In this document: positions 15,397-38,693 of the stretch, piece after piece | Numbering within the stretch: position 1 is the first letter of the stretch | Layout: the number at the start of each line of letters is the position of its first letter | From: Anaerolineae bacterium | Lineage (GTDB): Bacteria > Chloroflexota > Anaerolineae > Aggregatilineales > Phototrophicaceae | Direction of reading: 5' to 3' | NCBI GenBank assembly: GCA_033579375.1 | Contig: JAVQVU010000007.1 | Location: 63,118 to 127,117, forward strand | Length of the DNA: 64,000 bases | Position numbers and translations under genes: made by a program | The notes under the pieces: model-generated | Told to the model about the DNA's origin: nothing | What the model saw: the letters and a program-made list of their open reading frames with translations, nothing else | The model's database searches: none

Positions 15397-16221
15397 ATGT
15401 TGTTTGAAGACGTTACCCTGGGTTTCATCGGCGCAGGCGTGATGGGATCAGCCATGATTCATGGCCTACTGGCCAAAGAACTGATTCGGCCAGAGAACAT
15501 CATTGCCTCTGATCCACACACTGAGAAGGCCGAAGAAATCGCCAACAAGTACGGCATTCGCGTCACCGAAGACAACTACGAAGCTGCTTCCCACGCCGAT
15601 ATTCTCGTCCTAGCCGTTAAGCCGCAAACGCTACACAAAGTCATGCAGCCTCTGCGCGGCAAAGTCGATCACTGCGCACTGATCGTGAGCATCGTCGCCA
15701 GCATTAAAATGCAGACCATTGTCAATGAACTGCTCAATAGCCGCGTGGTGCGCAGTATGCCCAACACGCCGGCCCAGATTGGCGAAGGCATGACCGTCTG
15801 GACAGCCACCCGCGAAGTCGCAGAGCGCCAGCACCGCCAGGCAGCTGCCTTGTTAGGCGGATTCGGCGAACAGCTCTACGTAGATGACGAACGCCTCTTG
15901 GACATGGCAACAGCCCTGAGCGGCTCTGGCCCGGCCTACGTCTTCCTGTTCATGGAGGCAATGATCGACGCTGGTGTACGCATGGGCTTCAGCCACCGTG
16001 ACGCCACTAAACTGGTGTTGCAGACGCTCAAGGGCTCAGCCGACTATGCCTTGAAGTCAGGTCAGCACCCAGCTATCTTGCGCAATCAGGTGACCAGTCC
16101 TGGCGGCACGACCGCTGCTGCACTCTACGAACTGGAGCGCACCCAGTTCCGCACCTCCATCGCCGAAGGTATTTGGGCAGCGTATCAGCGCAGCCTAGCT
16201 CTGGGGCGCGATCAGGACTGA
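15397..16221 (+). CDS. proC: pyrroline-5-carboxylate reductase
   Basis: Rossmann motif LGFIGAGVMGSAM, plus the ProC signature VTSPGGTTAAAL. Confidence 0.9.
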   Translation: MLFEDVTLGFIGAGVMGSAMIHGLLAKELIRPENIIASDPHTEKAEEIANKYGIRVTEDNYEAASHADILVLAVKPQTLHKVMQPLRGKVDHCALIVSIVASIKMQTIVNELLNSRVVRSMPNTPAQIGEGMTVWTATREVAERQHRQAAALLGGFGEQLYVDDERLLDMATALSGSGPAYVFLFMEAMIDAGVRMGFSHRDATKLVLQTLKGSADYALKSGQHPAILRNQVTSPGGTTAAALYELERTQFRTSIAEGIWAAYQRSLALGRDQD

Positions 16222-17594
16222 TCCTGGGGCGGCGTGGGCAGGTGAGGATTTAAGCCTGCCCGCTCTCGTTCCTCGCGATAGTCTTGAGGCGTGTCGATGT
16301 CGCACAAAATGCTGTCGTTGCTCACTTCCACATAGGCAATCGCAGCTTCGTTAGCGTTCATCACTTCGCGCGCGGATTGGCCCGTTTTCAAAGCCAGGAT
16401 GTCTTGCCAGTAACACCGATCCAGCAGATAGGGATGGCCACGCCGCCTTTGGTAGCTGGGCATGACGATGTCTCCCTGACCTTCGGCGTAGGCCTTCAAC
16501 ACCTTGTAAATCGTGCGCGGCTCCATGCGCGGCTGATCGCCCAAGACGATCAGCGCCGCCGCCATGCGCGGACTGAGCGCCTTCAGGCCCGTCTGCATAG
16601 AGACTAGCATTTCACCGTTCTTGTAAGCCTTGTTGATGACACAAGTCACGCCATAGGGCTTGAGTAGGCGCTTCACTGCGTCAGCTTGGTGGCCCAAGAC
16701 GACGACAATTTCTTCTAAGCGAGAGCGCACCAACTGTTCGACGATGTGTTCAATGATCGTCTTGCCGTCCTGCCAGGGCAGCAAAATTTTATGCTGACCC
16801 ATGCGCGACGATAGGCCAGCGGCCAGCACCACCGCCCCTATCGGCTTCTGCACTTCGTAGATCGGATCAGCGGCGCGCACTGAGCCGATGGCTACAGCGT
16901 CAATTCGCGAGGCTTTAAGCGTCAGCCTAGCGATGGTACGAGCGCGCTGACGGCTGTGCTGGCCAAGCGGTACTTGGTTCAAAAAAGTGATGATGCGGGC
17001 CTGCGATGGCGCACCGCGCCAGCCCAACTCCTCATCGCGCAGAATTTGCGCCACCCAGGGCGCTTGGATCGGCGTCTCTGGAAAGAAGCCGTACTTTTCG
17101 TGCATAGCCTGGGGATTGTAGACATACTGTTCATTGAGCGGCTTGTCCAGCACAGACAGGGCCGCCATCTGCACGACCAGCGTCGCTTCCGACGGGATCA
17201 TCGGCTCATGCGGCTTGAGAGCCTTAAATAGGCGTCCACGCGCCCCATCGGCCTCCACTAACAAAACATCGCTGTCTACGGCGTCCAGCAAGCGCCTAAT
17301 CCAGTCGCCGTCTCCGCCAAAGACCTTGTTCTGACGAATTGAGTCGTACAGGAAGACAAAACGATGGTCGCTGAGAGCCTGAGACATGATGATAGGGCTA
17401 GCGTCGTAGCGCATAGCAAAAGGCATCAGATCGAGCTGATCGACTCCAATGCGCGTCGTCGTCGTCGCCAACACGCGCCAGCCTTGCTCCATCAGCTCAT
17501 AGCCTAGGCCCACCAACGCCGAGGTCTTCCCCCCTGCCCCGATGAAGGCCACTACTTCGCCCTTGCTCAGCCCGAAGGCCCGCGCTAGCTTCAC
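16212..17594 (-). CDS. fusion of YqeC-like accessory protein (N-terminal) with MocA-like molybdenum cofactor cytidylyltransferase (C-terminal)
   Basis: GTG start. The N-terminus VVAFIGAGGKTSALVGL...VLATTTTR is YqeC-like. The C-terminal half GAVVLAAGLSSRMGQHKILLPW...LGDQP is a MobA/MocA NTP-transferase signature. Confidence 0.75.
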   Translation of the reverse strand: MKLARAFGLSKGEVVAFIGAGGKTSALVGLGYELMEQGWRVLATTTTRIGVDQLDLMPFAMRYDASPIIMSQALSDHRFVFLYDSIRQNKVFGGDGDWIRRLLDAVDSDVLLVEADGARGRLFKALKPHEPMIPSEATLVVQMAALSVLDKPLNEQYVYNPQAMHEKYGFFPETPIQAPWVAQILRDEELGWRGAPSQARIITFLNQVPLGQHSRQRARTIARLTLKASRIDAVAIGSVRAADPIYEVQKPIGAVVLAAGLSSRMGQHKILLPWQDGKTIIEHIVEQLVRSRLEEIVVVLGHQADAVKRLLKPYGVTCVINKAYKNGEMLVSMQTGLKALSPRMAAALIVLGDQPRMEPRTIYKVLKAYAEGQGDIVMPSYQRRRGHPYLLDRCYWQDILALKTGQSAREVMNANEAAIAYVEVSNDSILCDIDTPQDYREERERAGLNPHLPTPPQDQS

Positions 17595-17631
17595 GACTCA
17601 CGCTCCCCTGTCGGCGTCCCAAGCGCAGACA

Positions 17632-19854
17632 CTAGACGACGCCCAAACCTTGACGACGCAAGGCTTCGACCACCTTGTCAGGGGTGAAGGGTTGGCTGGT
17701 CAGCCAGATGCCTGTCGCGTCGTGGACGGCCGCTGCCAACGCCGGCGTGAAGGGTAGCATGGGCATCTCAGCCATGCCGCGCGCTCCCCAGGGGCCAATT
17801 GGATCAGGATACTCTAAGATGACGCTGCGCACTTCCAGTGGCATATCCAATACCGTCGGGATGAGGTAAGTAGACAGGTAGGGATTCAGCACCCGTCCCT
17901 CTTTGACGACCAGGCGCTCCATCAGAGCGTAGCCTAGCGCCTGGGCCACCGCGCCTTCGATCTGGCCGCGCACTTGCTGTGGATTGATAGCTTTGCCCAC
18001 GTCGTTCACAGCTACCACGCGCAGCACTTGGATGAGGCCCGTCTCCAAGTCAACTTCCACCTCAACGGCCTGCGCCGCATAACCGTAGGCGAAGTTAGGT
18101 TCGCTGCGTCCAGTCATCGGATCATAAGGCGTGGTCTTGGGCGGACGATAGGTGAATTCGGCTTTGGCCGGGCGTTCTTCGTTGTGCCAGGCTTGCAGAG
18201 CTAGTTCAACAGCGCCGCGTATGGCGTTGCCCGCCATGAAGGTCAGGCGCGAAGCTGAGGCGCTGCCCGACGAACCCGTCTCAGCGCTATCAGAAGCGAT
18301 CAAGCGCACGCGCTCCATCGGCACGCCAACAGCTTCGGCTGCCATCTGCACAAAGACCGTGTGCGCGCCCTGGCCGACGTCGGCGCCACCTTGGCGCACA
18401 ATCACCTCTTCAATCTCGCGACCGCCGCGCAGCTCCACGCCAGCCCAACAGCGTTCCGGGAAGCCAAAGCTGTAACCCACGTTCTTGAAGCCAACAGCCA
18501 TGCCGATTCCGCGTCGTCTGTTGGCTTCCTTAGGCTGAGTCGGGCTAGGTTTGCGCCAAGTCTCACCTTCTTGCACCCAGCCCGCTTCGCGCGCGCAGGC
18601 TTCAATGACCTGTGGTACGCTTACGCCGACAGGGAGGGGTGTGCCAGTGGACAGAATGCTGCCCTCGCGGAAGCAATTCTTCAGACGCAGGGTGACCGAG
18701 TCTATGTCTAGAGCTAAGGCCAGGCGTTCAATCATGCCCTCGGCCGCAAACAGAGCTTGCGGCGCACCAAAGCCGCGAAACGCGCCTGTGGGGATGTTGT
18801 TGGTGTAGACAGCATAGGTGTCTACGTAGATGTTGTCTACGTCGTATGCGCCGCTCACGGTCAGGTTGGCGTTGCCCAGCACCTTGTTGGAGGTGTAGTT
18901 GTAGCCGCCAGCATCGCCAATTACGCGCGCCTGGATGGCGACGATTCGGCCATCGCGCATAGCGCCCCACCTGGCGCGCACGCTGATGGGGTGGCGCTTG
19001 TGGTGATAGAGGATAGATTCTTCGCGCGACCAGACAATCTTCACCGGACGTTGCAGTTTCCAGGCCGCCAAAGCCAGCACAATCTGCACCGACATATCTT
19101 CGCGCCCCCCGAACGCACCGCCAATCGCAGGATAAACCACACGCACCTGTTCGGGTGGCAAATTCAGCGCATGATAGATTTGTTCCTGGTCTTCATGCGT
19201 CCACTGGCCAGCCACCAGCACCGTCACCCGCCCTTGCTCGTCGATATAGCCCAGACCCGCTTCTGGCTGCAAATAGGCGTGTTCCTGCCAACTTGTGTGA
19301 AATTCATCTTCGACGATCACGTCCGCCTGGGCAAAGGCCGCTTCAACATCGCCCTTGCGAATGCGGTAGTGGGCGACGATGTTGTTGGGCGTATCAGGAT
19401 GAAGCTGAGGCGCGCCATCCTGCATAGCCTCCTCAGGATCGAAGACCGCAGGCAAGTCTTCATAATCAACGCGCACCAGCCCCACCGCCTGAGCAGCGAT
19501 GGCTTCCGTCTGGGCTACCACGACGGCCACTACATCCATGTAACAGCGCACAATATCCGTGCCGAGTTTGTCACCGCCCGGCCCGCAGATGACGGGTTGA
19601 TCCTTGATGACTAGGCCGTATTCGTTGACAGGAACATCTAGAGAGGTGAAGACAGCCACCACCCCAGGCAGAGCAAGGGCTGCGCTGACGTCCACGCCAC
19701 GCACGCGGGCATGGGCGCGCTCGCTCCATTTCAGCTTCATCCAAAGCTGGCCTTCGATGTTCACATCGCTGGGATAGGGCGTCTCGCCCGTCACTTTGCC
19801 CAGGGCGTCCAAACGCTTGACGGATTGGCCAATGACGAGGTGTTTATCAGCCAT
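17632..19854 (-). CDS. xanthine dehydrogenase family molybdopterin-binding subunit
   Basis: 740 aa. It has an a/b-hammerhead N-terminus (VKRLDALGKVTGETPYPSD), AIGGAFGGRED, FRGFGAPQ and a C-terminal dimerisation domain. Confidence 0.9.
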   Translation of the reverse strand: MADKHLVIGQSVKRLDALGKVTGETPYPSDVNIEGQLWMKLKWSERAHARVRGVDVSAALALPGVVAVFTSLDVPVNEYGLVIKDQPVICGPGGDKLGTDIVRCYMDVVAVVVAQTEAIAAQAVGLVRVDYEDLPAVFDPEEAMQDGAPQLHPDTPNNIVAHYRIRKGDVEAAFAQADVIVEDEFHTSWQEHAYLQPEAGLGYIDEQGRVTVLVAGQWTHEDQEQIYHALNLPPEQVRVVYPAIGGAFGGREDMSVQIVLALAAWKLQRPVKIVWSREESILYHHKRHPISVRARWGAMRDGRIVAIQARVIGDAGGYNYTSNKVLGNANLTVSGAYDVDNIYVDTYAVYTNNIPTGAFRGFGAPQALFAAEGMIERLALALDIDSVTLRLKNCFREGSILSTGTPLPVGVSVPQVIEACAREAGWVQEGETWRKPSPTQPKEANRRRGIGMAVGFKNVGYSFGFPERCWAGVELRGGREIEEVIVRQGGADVGQGAHTVFVQMAAEAVGVPMERVRLIASDSAETGSSGSASASRLTFMAGNAIRGAVELALQAWHNEERPAKAEFTYRPPKTTPYDPMTGRSEPNFAYGYAAQAVEVEVDLETGLIQVLRVVAVNDVGKAINPQQVRGQIEGAVAQALGYALMERLVVKEGRVLNPYLSTYLIPTVLDMPLEVRSVILEYPDPIGPWGARGMAEMPMLPFTPALAAAVHDATGIWLTSQPFTPDKVVEALRRQGLGVV

Positions 19855-19881
19855 AAAACGTACTCCGTGCCAGCGGCAGAC

Positions 19882-20283
19882 TCATCGCCCTCCGCCTTCT
19901 TTGTTGCGAGCGCGCATTTTAGCCTGCATTTCTTTCTTGCGGCGCTTGGCAGCTTCCATCTCCTTTTGGCGTTCGCGCTTCTCGCGATCTAGGTCACGCT
20001 CAGTGACGCCCTTGGGCATGCGCGGTTGGAAGGCTGCGTAGGCCATAGACAGCACCATAATGAAGATGAGGAAGATAGCGCCTGCGACGACGAAGCGCAC
20101 CTCTGGCTGACTAGGGAAGCCGCTGATACGCAGCCTCAGCTCGCGGAAGGCCGGCTCGCTCAGGAAATATGAGGCTGCGCCGACCACCAGGACGATGATG
20201 AAGCCTAGAGCGTACAGGAAAGGCTGCCATCTACTTCTGGGTCTGGCGGCTTTTTTCGCTGAATATTCGTCTTCAAAACTCAT
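19882..20283 (-). CDS. small two-TM membrane protein with a Lys/Arg/Glu-rich tail (unknown function)
   Basis: 133 aa. TM segments FLYALGFIIVLVVGAASYFL and VVAGAIFLIFIMVLSMAYAAF. The tail is highly charged (DREKRERQKEMEAAKRRKKEMQAKMRARNKE). ATGA overlap with the upstream FAD/FeS gene. Confidence 0.5.
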   Translation of the reverse strand: MSFEDEYSAKKAARPRSRWQPFLYALGFIIVLVVGAASYFLSEPAFRELRLRISGFPSQPEVRFVVAGAIFLIFIMVLSMAYAAFQPRMPKGVTERDLDREKRERQKEMEAAKRRKKEMQAKMRARNKEGGGR

Positions 20284-21719
20284 GATGATGTCTCCTTCGG
20301 TTGAGCCACTTTGCGACGGCTCGCTTCGATGAACGCCTGGATGATATTATAATATCCTGTGCAGCGGCACAAATTCCCACTCATGCTTTGCTGGATTTGC
20401 TCTTGGCTGGGCTGAGGTATCTCCTCCAGCAACTTTGCGCCACTCATCAAGAAGCCTGGCGTGCAGAAGCCGCACTGTACAGCGTCTGCCTGTACAAAAG
20501 CCGCTTGAATGGGGTGCAGCTCCTCGCCCTTCAGACCTTCCACTGTGATGATGTGCGCTCCATGCGCGCGCGGCGCCGCCACCATGCAGCTCATGACCGC
20601 CGCGCCATCCAAGAAGACAGTACAAGCCCCGCACTCGCCTTCGGCGCAACCCTCTTTCGTACCAGGCAGGCCCACATCATCGCGCAGCCAGTGCAGCAGC
20701 GTCTTGTGCTGGCCTGTCGCTATGCGCACCGCCTGGCCGTTGATCGTCGCCTCAATCGGCGTTTCGGCATCGTGCTGCTGAGCCGTCGCCAGCGCTTGGC
20801 TGTTCACGCGAGCCTGGTGTTCACCCCAGAGCATGGGCGGGTTGTGCGGGTAAGACTCAGCTTCACGGCCCTCGGCCAGCAGGCGAAGCGCACGCGCCAC
20901 CAGCACCTTGACCATCTCGGTGCGATAGGCTGCCGTGCTGCGCACGTCATCGATGGGGCTTGGGGCAGCGCCTGCTAGGCGCGCCACTTCGCGGATGGTG
21001 GTGTCATCCAACGTGCGGCCTATCAAAGCCGACTCGGCTACCGCCGCGCGGATGATCGTTGGTGCGACGCTGCCCAAAGCAATGGCAGCGCGCGTCACCG
21101 TCGGCCCATCGAATGCCAACACGACGGCGCAGTTTACGACGCTGATGGCTTGCGCGCGGCGCAAACCCAGCTTGAGGAAGACACCACGTTCATGAGGCTG
21201 GAGGGCAGCAAATTGGACAGAGGTCAGCACTTCGTTGGGCTGCATGACTGTGCGCCGCAGGCCTATGTAGAAGTCCTTCAATTCAACGGTGCGCTCGCCC
21301 TCGGTGCTAGCCAGGGTCACGCTGGCGGAGAGGGCCATCAGCGGCGTGATGGTGTCGTTGGCTGCCGAGCCTGTGATGAGGTTGCCGGCCACCGTCGCGC
21401 GATTGCGAATCTGAGGCGCGCCTACTTCCCAACTAGCCTGGGCTAGGGGCAATGCCCGCTGGCGAATCAGATCGCTGGCGACGACGTGGTTGTGATTGAC
21501 CAGCGCCCCCAGGCGAATTTCATCGCCATGCTGGCTGATAGCGTCCAGGCCAGGCACGCGCGTAATGTCGATCAAGGCTTTGACGTCGGGACGCTTGCCT
21601 TGTTCCAGCTCCAACAGCAAATCGGTGCCGCCGGCGATGATGCGCGCCTGCGCGCCATACATGCTCAACAATTCTAACGCTTCAACCAAGTTGCTTACGC
21701 TGTGATACTTCTCCCACAT
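20280..21719 (-). CDS. fused FAD-binding (CoxM/XdhB-like) and [2Fe-2S] (CoxS/XdhA-like) subunit of a molybdenum hydroxylase
   Basis: The N-terminal FAD domain has IIAGGTDLLLEL and RNRATVAGNL. The C-terminal part has CAEGECGACTV, CGFCTPG and NLCRCTGY. Confidence 0.88.
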   Translation of the reverse strand: MWEKYHSVSNLVEALELLSMYGAQARIIAGGTDLLLELEQGKRPDVKALIDITRVPGLDAISQHGDEIRLGALVNHNHVVASDLIRQRALPLAQASWEVGAPQIRNRATVAGNLITGSAANDTITPLMALSASVTLASTEGERTVELKDFYIGLRRTVMQPNEVLTSVQFAALQPHERGVFLKLGLRRAQAISVVNCAVVLAFDGPTVTRAAIALGSVAPTIIRAAVAESALIGRTLDDTTIREVARLAGAAPSPIDDVRSTAAYRTEMVKVLVARALRLLAEGREAESYPHNPPMLWGEHQARVNSQALATAQQHDAETPIEATINGQAVRIATGQHKTLLHWLRDDVGLPGTKEGCAEGECGACTVFLDGAAVMSCMVAAPRAHGAHIITVEGLKGEELHPIQAAFVQADAVQCGFCTPGFLMSGAKLLEEIPQPSQEQIQQSMSGNLCRCTGYYNIIQAFIEASRRKVAQPKETSS

Positions 21720-21731
21720 GGCCTGCCATCT

Positions 21732-22355
21732 CTACTTCAACGGTTCAATATCTATGACGGTATACGGGTTGACGTTGACGATTCGCGTCTGGTGATAGTC
21801 CGTCTGCACGACCTGTCGCCGATCCCAGGTGTGGACGTGACCATGCACCATGTAGCGCGGATGATACCACTCCATGAAGCGCAGGAATGACTCGAAGCCA
21901 TTGTGCGGATAATCTGCTGCGTCGTGGATGCCCTTCGGCGGGGCATGGGTCACGAATACATCGACGCCTGCGCCGCGCCGCCAGCGATTATAGCGCAGAC
22001 GTGGCGCTAACTTCAGAACGTTCACGCGCATTTCTGCAGGCGTGTATTGAATTGTACCGCGATTATAGCGTATTGAGCCTTCCAGGCCCACGAACGACAA
22101 GCCCATGTACTCAAAATAGTTCATGTGCAGATTAATCCCGCCTGGTGGTTCTTGCTCGTACATCTCGTCGTGGTTGCCGCGCACATACAGCAACGGCACA
22201 CTGAGGATAGTTGAGATGAAGTCCAGGTAAGCCGCCGGCATGTCGCCACAGCTGACGACGACGTCGACGTCGGCGTGGCGCCTGCGCAGATTGGCGGCAT
22301 TCTCTAATTGGGGCATGACCGTATCGCTCACGAATAGAATCTTAGCCATGCCCAC
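21732..22355 (-). CDS. metallophosphoesterase
   Basis: Motifs ILFVSD, CGDM, RGNHDE, VTHAPP and GHVH (calcineurin-like phosphoesterase pattern). Confidence 0.75.
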   Translation of the reverse strand: MGMAKILFVSDTVMPQLENAANLRRRHADVDVVVSCGDMPAAYLDFISTILSVPLLYVRGNHDEMYEQEPPGGINLHMNYFEYMGLSFVGLEGSIRYNRGTIQYTPAEMRVNVLKLAPRLRYNRWRRGAGVDVFVTHAPPKGIHDAADYPHNGFESFLRFMEWYHPRYMVHGHVHTWDRRQVVQTDYHQTRIVNVNPYTVIDIEPLK

Positions 22356-22361
22356 GCACTT

Positions 22362-23174
22362 TCAAGCGTCTAGCCAGCGCATGGGAGCGCCACTCCCCCC
22401 ACGCCGCACCATGACAATCTCAGCCAAAATGCTCAGGGCAATTTCGCGCGGCGACTCGGCCTCCAACTCCAAGCCGATTGGGGCATGCACGCGCCTGATT
22501 TGCTCCTCGCTCATGCCCACCTCGCGTAGGGCTTTCACCGTCAAGGCCCAGCGGCGCTTGCTGCCGATCAGGCCCACGTAGCGCGCCGACGTGCTAGCCA
22601 GAGCAGGCAAAAGCTGCACATCGACAGGCAGACCGCGCGTCAGGCAGGCGATGTAGGTGTTGCTCGTAATCGTCGTATGCTGTGGAACTTCGTGCGGCTT
22701 GCAGATGACGTAGCCATCTAGGCCAGGCGCATAGCCTGGATTGGCGAATTCGGGCCGATCATCGCATAGCACTACGCGAAAGCCTAGCCATTTGCCCAGT
22801 TCGGCAACGGCCTTGCCAGTGTGTCCCCCACCAATCACCAGCAACGTGGGGGCAACCTCCAACGGCTCGATGAAGATGCGGGCCGTGCCGCCGCAAACGC
22901 CGGGGTCGCCGTCTTCCAGATTATTCAGAGTGTAAGTCTCAAGGCGAGCTTGGCCATCCACCAGCGCTGCCAGCGCCGCCTGGATGACGCGCGCTTCCAT
23001 TGAGCCACCACCTACTGTGCCGACGATACGGCCATCGGCGTAGACCAGCATTTTGCTGCCCACGTGGCGCGGCATACTCCCCTGAGTCTCGATCACTGTC
23101 GCCAAAGCAGCGCTCTGACCACGCTGGTGGACTTCCAGCAGCGCGGCGTAGACAGCTTCATGGTCATCGGCCAA
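22362..23174 (-). CDS. xdhC: XdhC/CoxI-family molybdenum hydroxylase maturation protein
   Basis: N-terminal block ALATVIETQGSMPRHVGSKMLV...GTVGGG, plus the Rossmann-like segment LLVIGGGHTGKAV. Confidence 0.85.
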   Translation of the reverse strand: MADDHEAVYAALLEVHQRGQSAALATVIETQGSMPRHVGSKMLVYADGRIVGTVGGGSMEARVIQAALAALVDGQARLETYTLNNLEDGDPGVCGGTARIFIEPLEVAPTLLVIGGGHTGKAVAELGKWLGFRVVLCDDRPEFANPGYAPGLDGYVICKPHEVPQHTTITSNTYIACLTRGLPVDVQLLPALASTSARYVGLIGSKRRWALTVKALREVGMSEEQIRRVHAPIGLELEAESPREIALSILAEIVMVRRGGSGAPMRWLDA

Positions 23175-26673: not shown

Positions 26674-26734
26674 GAACATTACTCCGTTCCAGATATTGGT
26701 CAAACACAGACGAAAGTGCGCCCGATTGTAACGC

Positions 26735-30379: not shown

Positions 30380-30410
30380 GATACCCTTCTTCCAGATGAG
30401 TTAGGCGAGA

Positions 30411-31775: not shown

Positions 31776-32212
31776 AGGTCTCTCTCGGTGGTTTGTAGTG
31801 GACGAGGACGAGCTAACTCGCTGATGTCTTGGGCAGCCAAGAAGCGCTCCCCCGTCGTCCAGATGAAGCTCACGCGCCGCCCCAGGCGGTTGAGGATTGG
31901 CGGAGTCTTGTTCAACAGGGCCTCTAGGTGCAGCCTATAGTAAGCTTCGTCAGCGCGCGGATGGTCGGCCTCTTGAGGTAGCAAGTGGCGGCGCAAGTGT
32001 AGCTCCACGCCGCGCAACCGCCCGAAGTAGTAAATGCCGCTCACACCGTAGGGCCGCGCCGCCTGCCCGCTGAAGAACAGGGCCAGGTACTCTGCTCCAA
32101 AGCCATTCGGCATACGCCAGAGTGGAATACGATACCAAAGGTCGCGCAGCAGGCTCTCGGCGTCGCGCTGGCGATTGACGACGCCCACCAGCACGCGATC
32201 CTCTGGGTACAT
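31772..32212 (-). CDS. conserved hypothetical protein (146 aa), translationally coupled to ssnA
   Basis: No recognisable catalytic motif. Pattern VLVGVVNRQRD...WYRIPL...EYLALFF...HPRADEAYYRL. Its TGA overlaps the ssnA ATG (ATGA at 31772-31775). Confidence 0.5.
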   Translation of the reverse strand: MYPEDRVLVGVVNRQRDAESLLRDLWYRIPLWRMPNGFGAEYLALFFSGQAARPYGVSGIYYFGRLRGVELHLRRHLLPQEADHPRADEAYYRLHLEALLNKTPPILNRLGRRVSFIWTTGERFLAAQDISELARPRPLQTTERDL

Positions 32213-32224
32213 GATCGCTCGTCT

Positions 32225-33622
32225 TCAGTCGCCCACGACGGGCTGGCGTTCGCGAGTGGCGATCAGCATGTCGTCAATTTCGGCCACCATCTGTTGATGG
32301 CGAATCCACCACTGCGGGTTGCGCTGCGCATCAAGCTCATCGACTGTCTTGCCCTGCTGCTCCACCCAGGTGTAGTACTTGAGGTTGTGCCAGCGCTGGC
32401 GCGCATCAGACGTGCCGTCCATCACCCAATCGGTGCGCGCTCCATGAAAAATGCGTTCGATGTAGCCGATGGCCTGAGTTTCGGTGATGGGGCCGTGCTT
32501 GGCCTCCATGTGTTGCATAACGCTGTAGTAGCGTTCTAGTGAATCAGTGGCGACGGTGACGATCACGTCGCCTGCGCCGAGACGGTAGTGCCTGGCCGTC
32601 TTGATCGCGCCGATGATGTTGCACATGCCGCTGATCCCGAACAGGTTGCCGTAGAAGTCGATCTGACCATCGCCAAAGCCGTAGTGGCGCTCCAAGACCT
32701 GACGGCCAACAGGACTGGCGAAGACGCGCAGCGCGTTCACCGAGTCCATGTCGTCAATGCACATGAGCGCGTCCATGTTCAGCACGTTGTGAATCCAGGT
32801 GACGTGCTTGTCGCCAATGCCCTGAATTTCGTGCGCGCCGTAGCCGTTGTTGTAGAGCGTCGGGCATTGAATCGGCTCTAGCCCGACGATCTTATGCTCT
32901 GGGAAGAGTTGCTTGAGCCGATCACCAGCGGCGATTGTGCCAGCGCTGCCCATGCTGCTCACGTAAGCCGCTACGCGCCCATTGCCGATGCCGCGCGCAT
33001 GCAGCTCTGCCGCCAGTTCCGCCACCGTGTTGCCGGTGACGTAATAGTGGAAGCGGTAGTTGCCCATCACCTCAAACTGGTTGAGGATGCGAGCATTTGG
33101 GTTCTCGCGGCGGATGCGATTCACCTCATCGTAAATCTCTTTGACGTTGCTCTCGCTGCCTGGCGTGCGGATGATCCGCGCGCCGTAGCTCTCAATGCGT
33201 TGGAAGCGTTCCTTGCTCATGTCAGCGGGCAGGACGACCACGCTGTCATACCCCATGCGGCAGCCAATAAACGCGCCACCAATGCCATAATTGCCCGTCG
33301 AAGGCCAGACTAGCGTGTGTTTGCTGGGGTCAACCTCTCCCAAGAGTTGCTTTTCGATCAGGACGCTGTAAGCTGCGCCGACCTTGTGGCTGCCTGACGG
33401 GAAGGCCATGCCATAAATCACGACGATGTTGGTATCAACGCCAGTCAGGGCTTTGGGCAATACCACGTGGTAGACCTGATTTTCGCCATCGCGCCAAGTG
33501 ACGTTGTAAAGGTTGATCGGGTCTAGAGGTGCTTCGTGGCGCGCGCGCAAGGCTTTGGCGCGCACTTCAGGATCAATTTTGTGCGGATGAAGCATTTCTT
33601 CGAACGTTGGGCCAGTAACCAT
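32225..33622 (-). CDS. fold-type-II PLP-dependent enzyme (CysK/TrpB-like) with N- and C-terminal extensions
   Basis: PLP-lysine context SGSHKVGAAY. Also STGNYGIGGAF, VGLEPIQCPTL and HEIQGIGDKH. The 465-aa length is about 150 aa longer than CysK. Confidence 0.75.
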   Translation of the reverse strand: MVTGPTFEEMLHPHKIDPEVRAKALRARHEAPLDPINLYNVTWRDGENQVYHVVLPKALTGVDTNIVVIYGMAFPSGSHKVGAAYSVLIEKQLLGEVDPSKHTLVWPSTGNYGIGGAFIGCRMGYDSVVVLPADMSKERFQRIESYGARIIRTPGSESNVKEIYDEVNRIRRENPNARILNQFEVMGNYRFHYYVTGNTVAELAAELHARGIGNGRVAAYVSSMGSAGTIAAGDRLKQLFPEHKIVGLEPIQCPTLYNNGYGAHEIQGIGDKHVTWIHNVLNMDALMCIDDMDSVNALRVFASPVGRQVLERHYGFGDGQIDFYGNLFGISGMCNIIGAIKTARHYRLGAGDVIVTVATDSLERYYSVMQHMEAKHGPITETQAIGYIERIFHGARTDWVMDGTSDARQRWHNLKYYTWVEQQGKTVDELDAQRNPQWWIRHQQMVAEIDDMLIATRERQPVVGD

Positions 33623-33662
33623 CTTCTCTTCCCTCGACTGTGGCCGAATTTAAGCCTGCCAA

Positions 33663-33893
33663 TTATCCTTCGTCATCCATCGCCAACTGCTGCTCCAGCG
33701 CACGAATCTCGCTGAACAGATCGTCGCGGCGGCGCGCCCAAGCGCGGTAGCGCTCCAAATCCTGAGGCGAGAGACGGTCATTATGCCCGCCATGCACGCT
33801 CAGCAAGCCATCAATCTGTCGATCTAGCGCATGATAATCCGCCACCAGGGCCTGGTAGCGCACCAAGAGCGACTTGAGTTCCTCACTGGCCAT
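33663..33893 (-). CDS. small coiled-coil protein (DUF465/YdcH-like?)
   Basis: The ATG at 33893 has GGAG 10 nt upstream and gives the 76-aa protein MASEELKSLLVRYQALVADYHALDRQIDGLL.... The longer track ORF (to 33968) would overlap the GT2 gene by 86 nt. Confidence 0.35.
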   Translation of the reverse strand: MASEELKSLLVRYQALVADYHALDRQIDGLLSVHGGHNDRLSPQDLERYRAWARRRDDLFSEIRALEQQLAMDDEG

Positions 33894-34905
33894 TGCGGCT
33901 GCGCTCCACACTCTCGCGGGTAGCAATCGGCGGCACGCGCTGCGAACGCTCCACGTTGGGAAACTCATCGAAGTTGCGCGTCGAAGCTACCACGTACAAT
34001 GGACGATCACGTGTTTCGTCGTAAATGCGAGCAATATACTGGCCCACGATGAACAGGAAGAACAATTGGAAGGCGCTGAGCAGCATGAGCAGAATGATCG
34101 TCGTCGCCTGGCCACCGAAGAAATCTGGCCCTTGTGTCAGGCGCAAAACAGCCACTACGATCCCTACGATGACCGCCAGCACCGCCAAGCCCAGGCTGAG
34201 GTAGATCATCACCTGGAGGGGGAAGTACGAGAAGCCAGTGACGGCGTCCCAGGCGAAGCGAATCATCTTGCGCAAGGGATATTTGGTCTCGCCGGCTACG
34301 CGCGCCCTGCGCACATAGCCCACGCCAGTCTGCTTAAAGCCAGCCCAGCTGGTCATGCCGCGTATGAAGCGGTTGTGTTCGCGCATGTGGCGCAGCACAT
34401 CGGCGACCTTGCGATCCATCAGACGAAAGTCGCCAGTGTCAACGGGAATGTTGACATCAGTAATGCGATAGATGAGGCGGTAGAAGAGCTTAGCTGTCGT
34501 CAGCTTGAACCAGCTCTCACCTTCGCGCTGAGTGCGCACGGCGTACACCACATCGTAACCTTCGCGCCACTTGGCCACCAGCTCTGGGATCACCTCTGGT
34601 GGGTCTTGCAGGTCAGTATCGATCAGGACGACGGCGTCGCCGCTGGCGTGGTCAATGCCAGCGGTGACAGCCACCTGATGGCCAAAGTTGCGGGCAAAGT
34701 TGACGACGCGCACCCGTGAGTCGGACTCGGCCAGCCGCTCCATAATGGCCAGCGAGCCGTCACGGCTGCCATCGTTAATCATGATGAGTTCCCAGGGTTG
34801 CCCTAGACCTTCCATGACAGCCCGCACGCGCTCATAGAAAGCGGGCAGAATTTCTTCTTCATCGTAAACCGGCGCAACAATGGAAAAAGTCGGTCTGTTG
34901 TTCAT
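33883..34905 (-). CDS. GT2 polyprenol-phosphate glycosyltransferase (GtrB/ArnC/DPM1-like)
   Basis: Motifs SIVAPVYDEEE, INDGSRDGS and DTDLQDPPE (DxD). Two C-terminal TM helices, as in GtrB. Confidence 0.85.
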   Translation of the reverse strand: MNNRPTFSIVAPVYDEEEILPAFYERVRAVMEGLGQPWELIMINDGSRDGSLAIMERLAESDSRVRVVNFARNFGHQVAVTAGIDHASGDAVVLIDTDLQDPPEVIPELVAKWREGYDVVYAVRTQREGESWFKLTTAKLFYRLIYRITDVNIPVDTGDFRLMDRKVADVLRHMREHNRFIRGMTSWAGFKQTGVGYVRRARVAGETKYPLRKMIRFAWDAVTGFSYFPLQVMIYLSLGLAVLAVIVGIVVAVLRLTQGPDFFGGQATTIILLMLLSAFQLFFLFIVGQYIARIYDETRDRPLYVVASTRNFDEFPNVERSQRVPPIATRESVERSRNGQ

Positions 34906-36164
34906 GGAGTTTCTATCTTGTTGAGCAGCGCTTGGCGGATGATGGCCAGATCAGGCGGGACGCGCAGGCCGCCGCTTACAGCTTGCTGAGCGCGCTTGAT
35001 GTCTTTCAAGCCATTGCCAGTGAGCATAAGCAGAACACGCTCTTCTGAATGAATATACCCCGATTCTACTGCAATCTGCGCACCCGCAAAAGCGGCGGCT
35101 GAGGCCGGCTCGGCGAAGACGCCGCTCAGACGCGCCAATTGGGGGATTGCAGCGAGGATTTGCTCATCGCTGACGGCGACATATGCACCATTAGTCTGGC
35201 GCACAGCGCGCAGCGCCTTCACGCGGTCGCGCGGCAAGCCCGCCGAAATGCTGTCGGCGATGGTCTCCGCAGGAGCGGGTTGCATGTCCTGACCGGCTAT
35301 GCCAAGACGCCAAGCTTGCACTAACGCTGAGCTGCCCTCAGCCTGCACACCAATGATACGCGGCATACGATCTGTCCAGCCTAGTTGGTACAAATCCCAA
35401 AAACCTTTGTACAACCCGCTGATGATACTGCCATCCCCCACGCTGACGACGACGACATCCGGCACTCGCCAACCAAGCTGTTCGGCAATCTCCAGGCTGG
35501 CGCTCTTCTTGCCCTCGGTCGTGAAGGGATTCACGCCGGTGTTGCGGCAATACCAGTTGGCTTCCAGGCTTATCTGCATACACAGATCGAAAGCCACGTC
35601 GTAGCTGTCTTCGATGAGGATCACCTGCGCGCCGTAGACCAGCAGTTGGGCAATCTTGGCTTCTGGCGCAGTAGCAGGCACGAAGATGATGGTCTGCATG
35701 TGTGGCACAGACGCCATGACCCCAGCAAGCGCGGCGGCAGCGTTGCCCGTGCTGGCGGCGCTCACAGTGCGTATACCAAGCTCCATCGCGCGCGTCACCA
35801 CGACGACGCTGGCGCGGTCTTTGTAAGAGGCGGTTGGGTTACGTCCATCGTCTTTGAGCCAGACCTGGCGTAGGCCCAGGCTCTCGGCCACGCGCGGCGC
35901 ATTATAGAGTGGCGTCCAGCCTACCGACAGAGATGGCACAGGCGACTCGTCCGCGATGGGTAGAAGCGCTTTGTAACGCCAGACGTTCATGAGTGAGCTG
36001 TGGCCGATGGCATCACGGTCTACGCTGGCGCGCAGGGCAGCGTAGTCGTAGAGGATATCCAACGTACCCGCTTCGCCGCAATCAGGGCAGGTGTAGGTAA
36101 CTTCGCTCAGGCCGTACTGCCTGCCGCAGATAACGCACTGAAGGAACATCGATTTACTCATCAA
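34902..36164 (-). CDS. threonine-synthase-like PLP enzyme with an N-terminal Cys4 zinc ribbon
   Basis: Motifs CVICGRQY...CPDCG, PLP lysine TASYKDRAS and STGNAAAALAG. The function could be ThrC or a related beta-replacement/elimination enzyme. Confidence 0.75.
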   Translation of the reverse strand: MMSKSMFLQCVICGRQYGLSEVTYTCPDCGEAGTLDILYDYAALRASVDRDAIGHSSLMNVWRYKALLPIADESPVPSLSVGWTPLYNAPRVAESLGLRQVWLKDDGRNPTASYKDRASVVVVTRAMELGIRTVSAASTGNAAAALAGVMASVPHMQTIIFVPATAPEAKIAQLLVYGAQVILIEDSYDVAFDLCMQISLEANWYCRNTGVNPFTTEGKKSASLEIAEQLGWRVPDVVVVSVGDGSIISGLYKGFWDLYQLGWTDRMPRIIGVQAEGSSALVQAWRLGIAGQDMQPAPAETIADSISAGLPRDRVKALRAVRQTNGAYVAVSDEQILAAIPQLARLSGVFAEPASAAAFAGAQIAVESGYIHSEERVLLMLTGNGLKDIKRAQQAVSGGLRVPPDLAIIRQALLNKIETP

Positions 36165-37125
36165 AGTCGCTCCGTCGTCCGGGGATGATGCGTGTGCCGC
36201 TCTCGCCGCGCATAGCGCGCGTCAGGTTTTCAGGATTGGTGATGATGGCCTGTGGGCCACCGTGCTGCACAAACTCCACCGCCGCTTCGATCTTGGGCAG
36301 CATACTGCCCACCCCGAAGTGGCCTTCGCTGATGTAGCTGCGCGCTTCTTGCAAGGTCATCTCGTCCAAATCGCGCTGTTGTGGCTTGTTGAAGTACAAG
36401 CAGACCTTCTCAACGCCAGTGGAGATCATGAGCAGATCAGCGCGCAGAGTTTGTGCTAGCAGGCTGGCTGTGCGGTCTTTGTCGACGACAGCAAACACGC
36501 CGCGCAGGCTGCCATACTCGTTGCGCACCACGGGTATGCCTCCTCCGCCCGCTGCGATGACGACGTAGCCACTGAGCATGAGAGCTTGGATGGCGTTGAT
36601 TTCGTGGATAGCACGCGGGACGGGTGAAGCGACGACGCGCCGCCAACCGCGACCGCTGTCTTCCATCACCTGCCAGCCCTCGGCTTCGAATTTGCGCGCC
36701 TCTTCTTCTGTCATGAAGCCACCGACGGGCTTGGTGGGAGTCTGGAAAGCAGGATCGTCGGCGTCGACGCGCACTTGAGTGATGACGGTGACGCAAGTGC
36801 GATTGATCCCACGCCGACGCAAGGCGTTGTCCAGCGACTGGCTGAGCATGTAACCAATACTGCCCTGGGTGTCTGCTACGACCAGATCGAGCGGCACGTC
36901 ATGAATGCCCCCATGCTTGACAGCAATTTCACCGCGCCGCATGATATAGCCCACCTGTGGGCCGTTGCCATGCGTCACTACCACGTGCCAATTGTCAGCG
37001 ATCATGTCGGCGATGTGGTTGCAGGTCTTGCGCACCGCCTCCCATTGGCGCGCAATGCCGGGGTCTTTGGGATTCTCTATTAACGAGTTGCCGCCGATAG
37101 CGATGACCGCCAATTTTTCTATCAT
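36154..37125 (-). CDS. arcC: carbamate kinase
   Basis: Motifs VIAIGGNSL, VVTHGNGPQVG and IAAGGGGIPV. Confidence 0.9.
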   Translation of the reverse strand: MIEKLAVIAIGGNSLIENPKDPGIARQWEAVRKTCNHIADMIADNWHVVVTHGNGPQVGYIMRRGEIAVKHGGIHDVPLDLVVADTQGSIGYMLSQSLDNALRRRGINRTCVTVITQVRVDADDPAFQTPTKPVGGFMTEEEARKFEAEGWQVMEDSGRGWRRVVASPVPRAIHEINAIQALMLSGYVVIAAGGGGIPVVRNEYGSLRGVFAVVDKDRTASLLAQTLRADLLMISTGVEKVCLYFNKPQQRDLDEMTLQEARSYISEGHFGVGSMLPKIEAAVEFVQHGGPQAIITNPENLTRAMRGESGTRIIPGRRSDFDE

Positions 37126-37131
37126 AGTCTT

Positions 37132-37704
37132 CTATGCCTGCGCCTGGCTCAGGCGCGCCAACAAGTGCCAATGGCTAATGTCCCAATACACCTGAGCCTG
37201 GGCTGAAGGCGAAGGCAGGACGAACAGGCGCGTTGCGCCGCGCGCTGTGTCCTGTGGGCCATAGGCGATTTGCCCCGTCGTCAAGCCTAGCGCGACAGCT
37301 GCGGCCTTTTTGCTTGTGAAAGCCAACCAGCGCGGCTGGTAGCGGTCAATCTTGGCCCACAGAGCTTCAGCGTCAAAATCCCCAGGTTTTAGCGCCGAAT
37401 CGACGCCTTTGGCATGTTTGGCTAGGTCAGTTAGGCCCAGGCCATACTCTGGTAAACGAGGAAAATCGCGCGGCAAGAGCGGGACAGGCAGCAGTCCGAC
37501 AGCATATAGCGCAGGCCAGAAGCGGTTACTGGGGTTGGCGTAATAAGCTCCCAGGCGCGCCGAAACATCACTCGGCGCAGTGCCACAGAAGACCACGCGC
37601 AGCCCGTGCGCCAGAACATCCGCCAGGATGACTTGCTTTGTCACAGCGTCCTGCTCCTCTCCGCTTGCCACAGCCACCACGAGGCTCAGCCTTCCAGCAG
37701 ACAA
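37132..37704 (-). CDS. Mug/TDG-like (UDG family 2-like) DNA glycosylase with a non-canonical motif 1
   Basis: [33 protein letters not shown] aligns with E. coli Mug [33 protein letters not shown] (as recalled). GINPG is replaced by GTAPS. Confidence 0.75.
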   Translation of the reverse strand: [190 protein letters not shown]

Positions 37705-37709
37705 AAACC

Positions 37710-38693
37710 TTAGCGCAAAGTGAGCGCCATCGCCGCCTTCTGGACGTGCAGGCGGTTTTCAGCTTCCTGATAAACAATGCTCTGCGGCCCGTCGATGACT
37801 TCGTCGGTCACTTCAATGTTACGATCCGCTGGCAGACAATGCATGTATACCGCGCCTTCGTTGGCCAAAGCCATGCGGCGGCTGTCCGCGATCCAATCGG
37901 TGTACTGCCTGCCGATGACCGCCGACTCCTCCTTGTCTTCAGTGGTCATCCAGCAGCCCCAGCTCTTGGCGTAGATGATGTCTGCACCTTTGAAGCCTTC
38001 ATCGAAGTCGTGAAGCACCTCAAAAGAGCCGCGCGAACGCTTGGCGTTCTCGCGAGCTTGCTCCACGATATCAGGCATGAGGCTGAATTCTTTAGGATGG
38101 GTCAGGCGCACGTTCATGCCGTAGCGCGTCATCAGCAGGATGAGGCTCTGCGGCACGCTGAGCGGCTTCTGGTAGCTGCTGGCGTAAGCGTAGGAGACGT
38201 TGATCGTCTTGCCGCGCACATCACGGCCAAAGTGTTCCATGATGGTCATCATGTCGGCCAAAATCTGGAAAGGATGGAAGATGTCGTCCTGCATATTCAG
38301 GACAGGCACGCGGCTGGCCTCGGCTACTTCGCGAATGTACTTGTTGCCAAATTTCCAATCGCACTGGCGGATGGCGATCCCATCGGTGTAGCGTCCAATG
38401 ATCTCGCCAATCTCTTTGGCAGTGTCGCCGTGCGAGATTTGCGTTGTCTCGCTGTCAATGAACATGGCGTGACCGCCGAGTTGAGCCATACCGGCTTCAA
38501 AGCTGGCGCGAGTGCGCGTGCTGGTGAAGAAGAACAGCAGACCAAGCACCTTGTCGCGTAGATAAGCGTGGGGTTCACCGACGGCGCGCTTGCGCTTCAA
38601 GTCAAAAGCGACATCCAATAGGGTGTCAATTTCATCCCGCGTCCATTCCAATTCGGGGGCAATCGTATCACGCCCACGCAGGTCAGTTTGCAT
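37710..38693 (-). CDS. YgeW-like carbamoyltransferase (ATCase/OTCase superfamily)
   Basis: Motifs STRTRASFE, HPFQILAD and HCLPADR. The block YQKPLSVPQSLILLMTRYGMNV resembles E. coli YgeW (as recalled). There is no OTCase DxxxSMG motif (KSWGC instead). Confidence 0.8.
   Translation of the reverse strand: MQTDLRGRDTIAPELEWTRDEIDTLLDVAFDLKRKRAVGEPHAYLRDKVLGLLFFFTSTRTRASFEAGMAQLGGHAMFIDSETTQISHGDTAKEIGEIIGRYTDGIAIRQCDWKFGNKYIREVAEASRVPVLNMQDDIFHPFQILADMMTIMEHFGRDVRGKTINVSYAYASSYQKPLSVPQSLILLMTRYGMNVRLTHPKEFSLMPDIVEQARENAKRSRGSFEVLHDFDEGFKGADIIYAKSWGCWMTTEDKEESAVIGRQYTDWIADSRRMALANEGAVYMHCLPADRNIEVTDEVIDGPQSIVYQEAENRLHVQKAAMALTLR

Follow-up and report, generated by a model that had tools for sequence, protein, structure and literature searches.

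The reductive route of urate and purine degradation through 2,8-dioxopurine (yanthine) has been reconstituted from the ygeW-xdhD cluster of Escherichia coli (Li et al. 2025, PMC12507026; Liu et al. 2025, bioRxiv 10.1101/2025.04.24.650524). In the passages of that work drawn on here, XdhD-YgfM reduces urate to 2,8-dioxopurine; YgfK reduces yanthine only if coupled to SsnA, which opens the ring to ureidomethyl-hydantoin; and HyuA, YgeW (with YqeA), YgeY and YgeX then lead to pyruvate. For Chloroflexota, the same passages propose as yanthine reductase a luciferase-family F420 enzyme, found instead of YgfK or of UacX, the reductase of Clostridioides difficile (Li et al. 2025, PMC12507026), so that the idea of F420 substitution is already published as a genomic inference. 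We have analysed 64,000 nucleotides of an Anaerolineae bacterium (assembly GCA_033579375.1, contig JAVQVU010000007.1, positions 63,118 to 127,117; hereafter ‘the window’, whose numbering is used throughout), in which a 22-gene array is a further example of this predicted and already noted pathway variant. Given that publication, the value of the locus is that of a well-documented test case, to which a cultured relative with the same array, Phototrophicus methaneseepsis, adds.

On balance it is probable, judging from protein families and gene order, that the array is the Anaerolineae version of reductive 2,8-dioxopurine degradation, with an F420-dependent luciferase-like (LLM) enzyme replacing YgfK. 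The array belongs to a gene block that keeps the same order throughout the class and also includes unrelated genes. The reductase candidate, its cofactor genes and the ring-opening enzyme stand together, as follows (bit scores with model cut-offs).

30411-31775, minus strand: SsnA ring-opening amidohydrolase (NF005540, 483 bits, cut-off 444; TIGR03314, 463, cut-off 455.5)
29708-30379, minus strand: Fno, NADPH:F420 oxidoreductase (TIGR01915, 212.7 bits, cut-off 149.8)
28943-29695, minus strand: CofE, F420-0:glutamate ligase (TIGR01916, 276 bits, cut-off 181)
28325-28942, minus strand: stand-alone FbiB-C-terminal-type nitroreductase, candidate FbiE (TIGR03553, 145 bits, below the cut-off of 249)
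27393-28334, minus strand: CofD (FbiA), 2-phospho-L-lactate transferase (TIGR01819, 293.5 bits, cut-off 257)
26735-27379, minus strand: CofC (FbiD), guanylyltransferase (TIGR03552, 156 bits, cut-off 105)
25669-26703, minus strand: Mer-like LLM F420-dependent oxidoreductase (PF00296, 233 bits, cut-off 27.9)

SsnA meets both SsnA-specific models and is 34.5% identical to the E. coli enzyme. A preliminary description of the window had placed cofC, cofD, a nitroreductase, cofE, fno and the LLM gene as an insertion between xdhC and ssnA; the block is as described, except that an 821-amino-acid (aa) membrane protein is also encoded there and that the ‘nitroreductase’ is a stand-alone homologue of the FbiB C-terminal domain. 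Its best model, TIGR03553, is missed, but its position between cofE and cofD and the precedent of Thermomicrobium roseum, a Chloroflexi strain in which the stand-alone FbiB-C-terminal homologue has been named FbiE, a dehydro-F420-0 reductase (PMC8498797), favour assignment as FbiE. No FO synthase (FbiC or CofG/CofH) is among the family matches of the annotated open reading frames (ORFs) of the window, nor is there a recurrent family of that type within ±10 kb of the related loci described below.

The LLM gene is likely to start at ATG 26673, matching homologues of 334-335 aa, and encodes the best-conserved protein of the array (median 83% identity across 63 related loci, range 64-88%; the medians for SsnA and CofD are 63% and 51%). 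Its top 17 model matches are all of F420 type, the best being the Mer models NF002619 (200.8 bits, cut-off 276) and TIGR03555 (195.7, cut-off 348.7), and the closest structure in the PDB is likewise Mer (158 bits). From these matches and the gene context we infer that the LLM uses F420.

A scan by SsnA alignment, with one genome per species, gave 80 Anaerolineae loci (SsnA 56-69% identical; loci are denoted here by L numbers), onto which the window proteins were mapped by tblastn. The closest SsnA homologues were all from Anaerolineae, with Phototrophicus methaneseepsis at 65% identity. Fno follows SsnA directly in 77/78 testable loci, CofE comes next in 74/75, and the LLM follows in 57/61; the order SsnA-Fno-CofE-FbiE-CofD-CofC-LLM is kept in nearly all 80, also where the upstream neighbours are unrelated. 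The F420 block was not found elsewhere in any of these loci, so that the pattern which the preliminary description had named as speaking against its hypothesis, relatives with the F420 genes placed elsewhere, was not observed. That the link between SsnA and F420 genes is an artefact of sampling close relatives was considered and rejected, as it holds down to 56% SsnA identity and with unrelated upstream genes; moreover, sampling centred on the LLM gives the same array, and SsnA-based sampling finds it in cultured P. methaneseepsis. No tblastn match to E. coli YgfK was obtained in any of the 80 loci.

In Phototrophicaceae and Aggregatilineales the usual head of the array reads (adenine or 8-oxoguanine deaminase)-YgeY-carbamoyltransferase-carbamate kinase-ThrC-like-GT2-small ORF-CysK-like-146-aa ORF-SsnA, and the usual tail after the LLM reads (membrane protein-XdhC)-phosphoesterase-FAD/FeS-(DUF6909)-Mo, FeS and Mo standing for the iron-sulphur and molybdenum subunits. 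The set of YgeY, carbamoyltransferase and carbamate kinase is inverted yet still adjoining in L012, L013 and L037. Loci of Anaerolineales type have only SsnA, the cof genes and the LLM together within 10 kb, preceded by genes for beta-lactamase-like, CT398-like and NACHT/HEAT proteins. An ORF of about 132 aa with a PNPOx-like split barrel, absent from the window, lies between cofE and fbiE in loci of this type (L051, L060, L062, L067, L070-L077 and L079-L081) and is possibly a further F420H2-dependent reductase, of FDOR type.

The arrays of relatives also hold genes that tie the array to purine catabolism: full-length HyuA (36-40% identical to that of E. coli) at the head of eight arrays (L041, L047, L049, L053, L059, L061, L063 and L066), an XdhD-like fused FeS-Mo enzyme in eight loci, and adenine deaminase upstream of YgeY in 21. 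The XdhD-like enzyme of L079, the only one examined for this feature, is 38-42% identical to E. coli XdhD and has the Glu606-type insertion. Beside HyuA, seven loci (L041, L047, L053, L059, L061, L063 and L066) encode another carbamoyltransferase of the OTC family (317 aa), which has 25% identity to that of the window, and in these both ureido groups might be removed phosphorolytically.

Relatives of the LLM outside the Anaerolineae array were sought among 1.84 billion cluster representatives (50%-identity clusters). The clade is small, with 390 representatives at E ≤ 1e-30; its full-length members range from 56% down to about 43% identity, below which come Mer-like proteins at 33-38%. The neighbourhoods of seven representatives (P numbers; identities are to the LLM of the window) were as follows.

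P0367, about 44-45%, in L090/L091 (GC 0.48; at least 14 similar places): cof genes absent
P0364, 48%, in L085: LLM gene overlapping a COG0402 amidohydrolase gene
P0372, 46%, in L093/L094 (GC 0.65): HyuA-like amidohydrolase gene overlapping the LLM gene, then IclR
P0366, P0371 and P0376, 43-46%, in L089, L092 and one place without DNA: no amidohydrolase neighbour
P0365, about 48-49%, in L088 (metagenomic contig, GC 0.48): Anaerolineae backbone without SsnA

In L090/L091 a GntR gene is followed by the LLM gene and by an amidohydrolase gene whose product best matches the SsnA of the window (29%, 165 bits). Next to it are genes for a three-subunit XDH, a HyuA-like enzyme with 38% identity to that of E. 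coli, an M20 peptidase, a PALP enzyme and a member of the hydantoin racemase family; judged by this content, it looks like another F420-type heterocycle degradation cluster. These metagenomic contigs further hold PFOR and a succinyl-CoA-ligase-like gene. That the LLM is found more than once beside a ring-opening amidohydrolase, and outside cof operons, suggests that the members of the clade are ring reductases. We tentatively extend this to the whole clade, a few hundred 50%-identity clusters, as uncharacterised F420H2-dependent reductases of N-heterocycle rings that, in several lineages, work together with cyclic amidohydrolases resembling SsnA or HyuA, the F420 tail genes and Fno having been recruited into the purine array in Anaerolineae, a proposal on which we would stop just short of betting.

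Downstream of the LLM gene lies the molybdenum-hydroxylase module, together with genes of other kinds.

23164-25629, minus strand: multi-pass membrane protein, 821 aa (without Pfam or NCBIfam match; present in 30 related loci with 33-47% identity)
22362-23174, minus strand: XdhC/CoxI-family Moco-insertion chaperone, 270 aa (NF045664, 231 bits, cut-off 350; TIGR02964, 120, cut-off 162)
21732-22355, minus strand: calcineurin-like metallophosphoesterase (PF00149; in 34 related loci)
20280-21719, minus strand: fused FAD (N-terminal) and 2x[2Fe-2S] (C-terminal) subunit (family-level matches to xdhA_small, XdhB and XdhC_FeS)
19882-20283, minus strand: predicted membrane protein, 133 aa (weak matches only)
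17632-19854, minus strand: XDH-family molybdopterin subunit (PucD, 554 bits, cut-off 784; Se_dep_XDH TIGR03311, 434, cut-off 830)
16212-17594, minus strand: YqeC fused to a MocA-type Moco cytidylyltransferase (TIGR03172, 141 bits, cut-off 73; TIGR03310, 177, cut-off 186)

The FAD and FeS subunits named in the preliminary description are both present, but as a single fused ORF, with identities of 28% to XdhB and 42% to XdhC of E. coli; its order, FAD at the N-terminus and FeS at the C-terminus, is kept in 30 related loci and is opposite to that of Rhodobacter XdhA. The XdhC-family protein matches XdhC-type models only, all below their cut-offs, and has 33% identity to E. coli YqeB (541 aa) over the N-terminal half of the latter. 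The molybdenum subunit is about equally far from E. coli XdhA (28-31% identity) and XdhD (29-31%). Its Glu252, Arg360 and Glu696 are placed in what we take to be the XDH active-site motifs (Glu802, Arg880 and Glu1261 of bovine XOR); Arg360 stands where XdhD has Gln, and at the XdhD-specific Glu606 insertion there is a deletion, a feature that speaks against identity as XdhD. The fusion of YqeC, a marker of the selenium-cofactor trait, to MocA is as previously described: the N-terminal YqeC domain passes its cut-off, while the MocA-type domain falls slightly below its own. No SelD turned up among the families to which the annotated ORFs of the window were matched. In twelve relatives (L007-L011, L014, L015, L023, L026, L030, L034 and L043) a 584-aa DUF6909 protein is encoded between the FAD/FeS and molybdenum genes, and L083 carries both a 136-aa ORF and DUF6909 there. 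The 821-aa membrane protein is probably outside the pathway; it and the GT2 glycosyltransferase listed below, both conserved within the array, may perhaps form a lipid-linked glycosylation pair.

Upstream of ssnA, the head of the array comprises eight genes.

37710-38693, minus strand: carbamoyltransferase of the OTC/AOTC/YgeW superfamily, 327 aa (NCBIfam, family level)
37132-37704, minus strand: Mug-like protein of the uracil-DNA glycosylase superfamily (PF03167; NF007570, 88 bits, below the cut-off of 144)
36154-37125, minus strand: carbamate kinase, YqeA counterpart (NF009007, 403 bits, cut-off 266; TIGR00746, 367.6, cut-off 358)
34902-36164, minus strand: threonine-synthase-like fold-type-II pyridoxal phosphate (PLP) enzyme with N-terminal Zn-ribbon-like extension (NF006050 (PRK08197), 307 bits, cut-off 303)
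33883-34905, minus strand: GT2 polyprenyl-phosphate sugar glycosyltransferase (family-level PgfS/ArnC matches below cut-offs; in 54 related loci)
33663-33968, minus strand: small hypothetical protein, 76-101 aa depending on start codon (no family match; in 39 loci at 30-60% identity)
32225-33622, minus strand: CysK-like fold-type-II PLP enzyme, 465 aa (PF00291)
31772-32212, minus strand: 146-aa protein (hyp146, gene 8), predicted PUA-like fold (no Pfam or NCBIfam match)

The carbamoyltransferase had been described as YgeW-like. It belongs to the OTC superfamily and has 37% identity to E. coli YgeW; the motifs KPLSVPQ and KSW are common to both, although three YgeW insertions are absent, the KSW motif occurs also in AOTC, the best NCBIfam model is AOTC (261 bits, cut-off 288) and the best PDB match is again AOTC. 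Membership of YgeW was rejected on model scores. The protein was detected in 44 related loci at 75-91% identity and, as a compact counterpart, probably works like YgeW in phosphorolysis of a ureido group. The carbamate kinase passes generic models, is 50% identical to E. coli YqeA and would yield ATP from carbamoyl phosphate.

The fold-type-II PLP enzymes of the preliminary description proved to be the ThrC-like and CysK-like genes. The former (210 bits to PDB ThrC 6cgq; present in 53 related loci) may serve housekeeping as a ThrC or may belong to the C3 end of the pathway; the latter, in 56 related loci at 60-78% identity, scores 131 bits with CysK models, far below cut-off, and about 111 bits with cysteine synthases of the PDB. 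Both are candidate substitutes for the diaminopropionate ammonia-lyase YgeX, the model for which gives the PALP enzymes of the array only 26.6 bits against a cut-off of 276. The GT2 glycosyltransferase is probably unrelated to purines, and the Mug-like protein, patchy in relatives (a tblastn match in 1/80 loci, and a UDG-family gene at the same position in Phototrophicus), is probably outside the pathway.

The stop of hyp146 overlaps the start of ssnA by 4 nt, and the gene is directly upstream of SsnA in 59/80 loci. Its 348 homologues are all from Chloroflexota, and most are of about 225 aa with an extra C-terminal domain that is absent here. The AF2 model (pLDDT 91.6; best Foldseek match ASCH 5gus, E 6e-4, TM 0.52) suggests a PUA-like fold of ASCH/YTH type, that is, of a class that binds nucleobases or modified bases, which is generic and gives no function. 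A homologue is retained in L088, despite the loss of SsnA there.

Three further genes of interest lie at the other end of the window.

59023-60432, plus strand: 8-oxoguanine deaminase family (COG0402) amidohydrolase (NF006055, 669.5 bits, cut-off 532)
60429-61121, plus strand: Nudix hydrolase between the deaminase and YgeY (weak Nudix/MutT matches)
61136-62329, plus strand: YgeY-family M20 hydrolase, for ureido-group hydrolysis (TIGR03526, 463.5 bits, cut-off 321.5)

A YgeY-like gene and a COG0402 deaminase had been reported to flank the array, and both are confirmed at these positions. YgeY, 38% identical to that of E. coli, is 22 kb from the array and on the opposite strand; in relatives it was detected in 27 loci (24 times on the strand of SsnA), as a rule just upstream of the carbamoyltransferase, and the 8-oxoguanine deaminase adjoins the array in L003, L012, L013, L020 and L043 and heads it in some relatives. 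Because YgeY and the deaminase thus stand at the array head in relatives, the triplet appears to be merely relocated in the window. With the E. coli K-12 proteins (locus L082) as tblastn queries, YgfK, YgeX, YgfM, UacT and XanQ gave no match in the 64 kb, and no HyuA homologue was found there, the sole match being an N-terminal one of 62 residues (36%) inside ssnA; YgfK, HyuA and YgeX proper had not been seen in the window before either. No PF01180 protein is among the annotated window ORFs, UacX itself not having been a query. The family scans found nothing related to the pathway in the remaining window ORFs outside the array and the flanking triplet. A 1995-aa ORF (52306-58293, minus strand) has no NCBIfam match. 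An arginase (TIGR01229, 286 bits, cut-off 228) is encoded at 46858-47760 on the minus strand, 8 kb away from the pair formed by carbamoyltransferase and carbamate kinase; as a gene for arginine deiminase (ADI) was not seen, an ADI-type role of that pair is not indicated.

By ORF listing and translation the array occupies 22,482 bp of the minus strand, from 38693 to 16212, with exactly 22 ORFs in succession, as the preliminary description had it, and all of the junctions given there, with overlaps of 4-11 nt and gaps of up to about 60 nt, were found. The seven overlaps are 36154-36164, 34902-34905, 33883-33893, 31772-31775, 28325-28334, 23164-23174 and 20280-20283, the third holding only if gene 6 starts at the internal ATG 33893; the other junction gaps are of 0-40 nt, and that between CofC and the LLM is 61 nt with the LLM start at ATG 26673. 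Each plus-strand ORF within the range of the array overlaps a family-matched minus-strand ORF, and GC is uniform across it, at about 0.59-0.62. The claim that the array has no intrinsic terminators stands in so far as terminator-like hairpins are not enriched (12 against 13.9 expected; 2 against 4.8 in a second scan), but two weak candidates occur at gene ends (37729-37711 and 26734-26718). The first of these sits exactly at the stop of the carbamoyltransferase gene, followed by the Mug-like gene. Hairpins and sigma-70-like promoters are together at chance level over the array (seen/expected from shuffles: 12/13.9, 7/5.6, 2/4.8 and 2/2.4), and since the consensus scans are not enriched over shuffles, transcription units cannot be defined from sequence. 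Scanned against Rfam, the entire window gave a single tRNA (62390-62471) and neither a purine nor a Moco nor any other riboswitch. At the head of the array lies the following region.

38694-38820, minus strand: head intergenic region, 127 nt, shared with a divergent alpha-glucosidase gene; the only sizeable non-coding stretch of the array

It contains the extended -10-like TGCTAGAAT and is likely, on sequence grounds, to be the promoter region.

Taken as a pathway, the array would begin with feeder deaminases (8-oxoguanine deaminase here, which would turn 8-oxoguanine into urate; adenine deaminase in relatives) and the XDH-family molybdenum enzyme (17632-19854 and 20280-21719), matured by XdhC and YqeC-MocA, which together would bring purines to the dioxopurine level. 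The LLM (25669-26673), by gene context and published analogy, would then transfer hydride from F420H2 to C6 of 2,8-dioxopurine, in the role of YgfK or UacX. Mer delivers hydride to a nitrogen-flanked carbon, and the chemistry proposed for the LLM is formally the same, as is that of PydA-type reduction. Fno would recharge F420 from NADPH, while CofC, CofD, FbiE and CofE, as their families suggest, would build the cofactor tail. SsnA, as orthologue of the E. coli enzyme, would hydrolyse the reduced six-membered ring to ureidomethyl-hydantoin and so pull the LLM reaction forward. More speculatively, the five-membered ring could be opened by a hydantoinase encoded outside the window, HyuA being within the array in some relatives. 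The compact carbamoyltransferase and carbamate kinase would remove one ureido group with gain of ATP, and YgeY the other; one of the fold-type-II PLP enzymes might finally, and again speculatively, release pyruvate and ammonia in the stead of YgeX.

Several observations weigh against this reading. The LLM does not reach the cut-off of any of the curated subfamily models for F420-LLM enzymes, so that its substrate, and even its use of F420, is inferred only. The carbamoyltransferase is well below both YgeW models (NF005538, 204.6 against 453 bits; TIGR03316, 193.5 against 500). The conversion of urate to 2,8-dioxopurine has no clear enzyme here, because the molybdenum subunit lacks the Glu606 insertion and has the presumed XDH residues. 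HyuA and YgeX are absent from the 64 kb. About eight of the 22 genes have no plausible role in a purine pathway, those without evident purine or F420 role being the Mug-like, GT2, metallophosphoesterase and 821-aa membrane protein genes and three for small proteins. Among the relatives, SsnA stands without Fno in L052 and there are no molybdenum genes within 10 kb in L084, while L088 lacks SsnA, the PLP genes, the carbamoyltransferase and the carbamate kinase; it holds 8-oxoguanine deaminase, Nudix, GT2, a hyp146 homologue, Fno, the cof genes, the LLM, the membrane protein, XdhC and the phosphoesterase. Of the families that the preliminary description had singled out for scoring, SsnA, YgeY, YqeC and carbamate kinase passed and the YgeW and selenium-dependent molybdenum-hydroxylase models failed. 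Its hypothesis of an F420H2-dependent variant of the pathway accordingly survives in part: synteny, the lack of YgfK in 80 loci, the LLM-amidohydrolase pairs and the proposal in the cited passages of Li et al. 2025 (PMC12507026) speak for it, and the mixed family scores, missing HyuA and YgeX, SsnA-less backbone of L088 and unrelated genes speak against.

It is possible, although unlikely, that the array is a case of frozen synteny. It would then be an inherited Anaerolineae super-array of functionally separate modules (one for purine catabolism, a self-contained operon for F420 biosynthesis that includes Fno and the LLM, and a pair of glycosylation genes), the LLM would be unrelated to purines and the reductive step would be performed by an enzyme encoded elsewhere. 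Unrelated genes do stand within the array (GT2, the 821-aa membrane protein, metallophosphoesterase, Mug, ThrC-like and small unknowns) and upstream of SsnA in Anaerolineales loci, but the adjacency of SsnA and Fno persists in all but one testable locus even though upstream genes have been reshuffled, inverted or replaced. The units are not delimited by promoter or terminator signals; YgfK, for its part, is absent from 80 loci that otherwise hold much of the pathway. L088, which keeps hyp146 and the backbone of cof genes, LLM, membrane protein and XdhC without SsnA, carbamoyltransferase or carbamate kinase, indicates that a synteny backbone can persist alone, yet its LLM is only about 48% identical, compared with 64-88% in SsnA-linked loci. 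Finally, where cof genes are absent, homologues of the LLM are paired with amidohydrolases resembling SsnA or HyuA and with XDH and M20 proteins, and the view that the LLM is merely part of a cof operon is thereby weakened, with L088 keeping it alive.

A second alternative retains the logic of the favoured reading and changes the substrate: LLM and SsnA would act on xanthine, urate, products derived from 8-oxoguanine or a pyrimidine, bypassing 2,8-dioxopurine. The sole molybdenum enzyme is indeed XDH-like, without the Glu606 insertion of XdhD, but relatives with the same LLM (76-82% identity) and SsnA (58-62%) carry XdhD-like and HyuA genes in the array; likewise, HyuA and YgeX are not in the window and the carbamoyltransferase is no YgeW equivalog, but SsnA passes both of the models specific to it. 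Genes of the 8-oxoguanine deaminase, Nudix and Mug families are associated with the array, and distant LLM homologues pair with dihydropyrimidinase- or hydantoinase-like enzymes. Taking these points together, we consider a different substrate quite improbable. Very improbable indeed is that the Anaerolineae SsnA serves deazaflavin or F420 biosynthesis or salvage and not purines, which would explain its fixed place before the cof genes and the Anaerolineales-type loci that keep only SsnA, cof genes and LLM together, since F420 biosynthesis has no known amidohydrolase step (PMC8498797), SsnA reaches the equivalog cut-off of the purine-pathway enzyme, and most loci co-localise it with YgeY, carbamoyltransferase and carbamate kinase, some also with HyuA or an XdhD-like enzyme.

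Were the LLM an F420H2:2,8-dioxopurine reductase, the pathway would have a third redox solution, a deazaflavin, beside NAD(P)H-linked YgfK and ferredoxin-linked UacX; F420 would gain a defined catabolic role in Chloroflexota; and a newly found gut pathway would extend to abundant environmental and wastewater bacteria. Were the tentative reading of the wider LLM clade also correct, purine or urate breakdown would be a principal physiological use of F420 in Anaerolineae, an abundant environmental class, and the LLM the first F420-dependent enzyme of nucleobase catabolism. In a 2021 review of F420 the words ‘purine’ and ‘uric’ are absent from the main text, and no F420-dependent enzyme had then been studied experimentally in bacteria outside Actinobacteria, Chloroflexota included (PMC8498797); in the literature available to us, no experiments of later date on a yanthine or uracil reductase that uses F420 were found.

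Compared with the ygeW-xdhD cluster of E. coli, the window shares SsnA, YgeY, carbamate kinase, a carbamoyltransferase of the OTC superfamily, an XDH-family molybdenum enzyme with FAD subunit, maturation genes of XdhC/YqeB-like and YqeC/MocA type, purine deaminases as feeders and a reductase gene near ssnA. It differs in being without YgfK, HyuA and YgeX, the predicted reductase being instead an F420-dependent LLM; in an array that embeds F420 tail genes and Fno and interleaves unrelated genes; and in a compact carbamoyltransferase (327 aa), a molybdenum subunit apparently not of XdhD type and a YgeY gene 22 kb off on the other strand. The F420 genes themselves resemble those of the Chloroflexi strain Thermomicrobium roseum (CofC/FbiD, CofD/FbiA, CofE, the stand-alone FbiB-C-terminal homologue and Fno; PMC8498797), but here the set is embedded in a purine-catabolic array straight after ssnA, with FO synthase outside the window.

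The LLM shares the TIM-barrel fold of the Mer/LLM-class F420 oxidoreductases, among which Mer is its best NCBIfam and PDB match; it differs from Mer in scoring below the Mer cut-offs (200 against 276 bits; 196 against 349), in its bacterial host, in the absence of a methanopterin context and in forming a separate small clade. The locus is an instance of the Chloroflexota variant of Li et al. 2025 (Fig. 3c; a PF00296 ‘luciferase family’ enzyme near SsnA; PMC12507026). What our analysis adds to the passages of that paper drawn on here is the embedded cofC, cofD, fbiE, cofE and fno, the class-wide gene order, the lineage-wise presence of HyuA, XdhD-like enzyme and adenine deaminase, and the pairing of LLM and amidohydrolase outside cof operons. 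In the C. difficile variant, the PydA-like reductase UacX is a ferredoxin-linked flavoenzyme and ureido cleavage is hydrolytic, by UacY, whereas the window has a predicted deazaflavin enzyme and keeps the phosphorolytic, ATP-yielding route; the C. difficile variant shows that the reductase and ureido-cleaving modules of this pathway can be exchanged between lineages, depending on which redox carrier is used.

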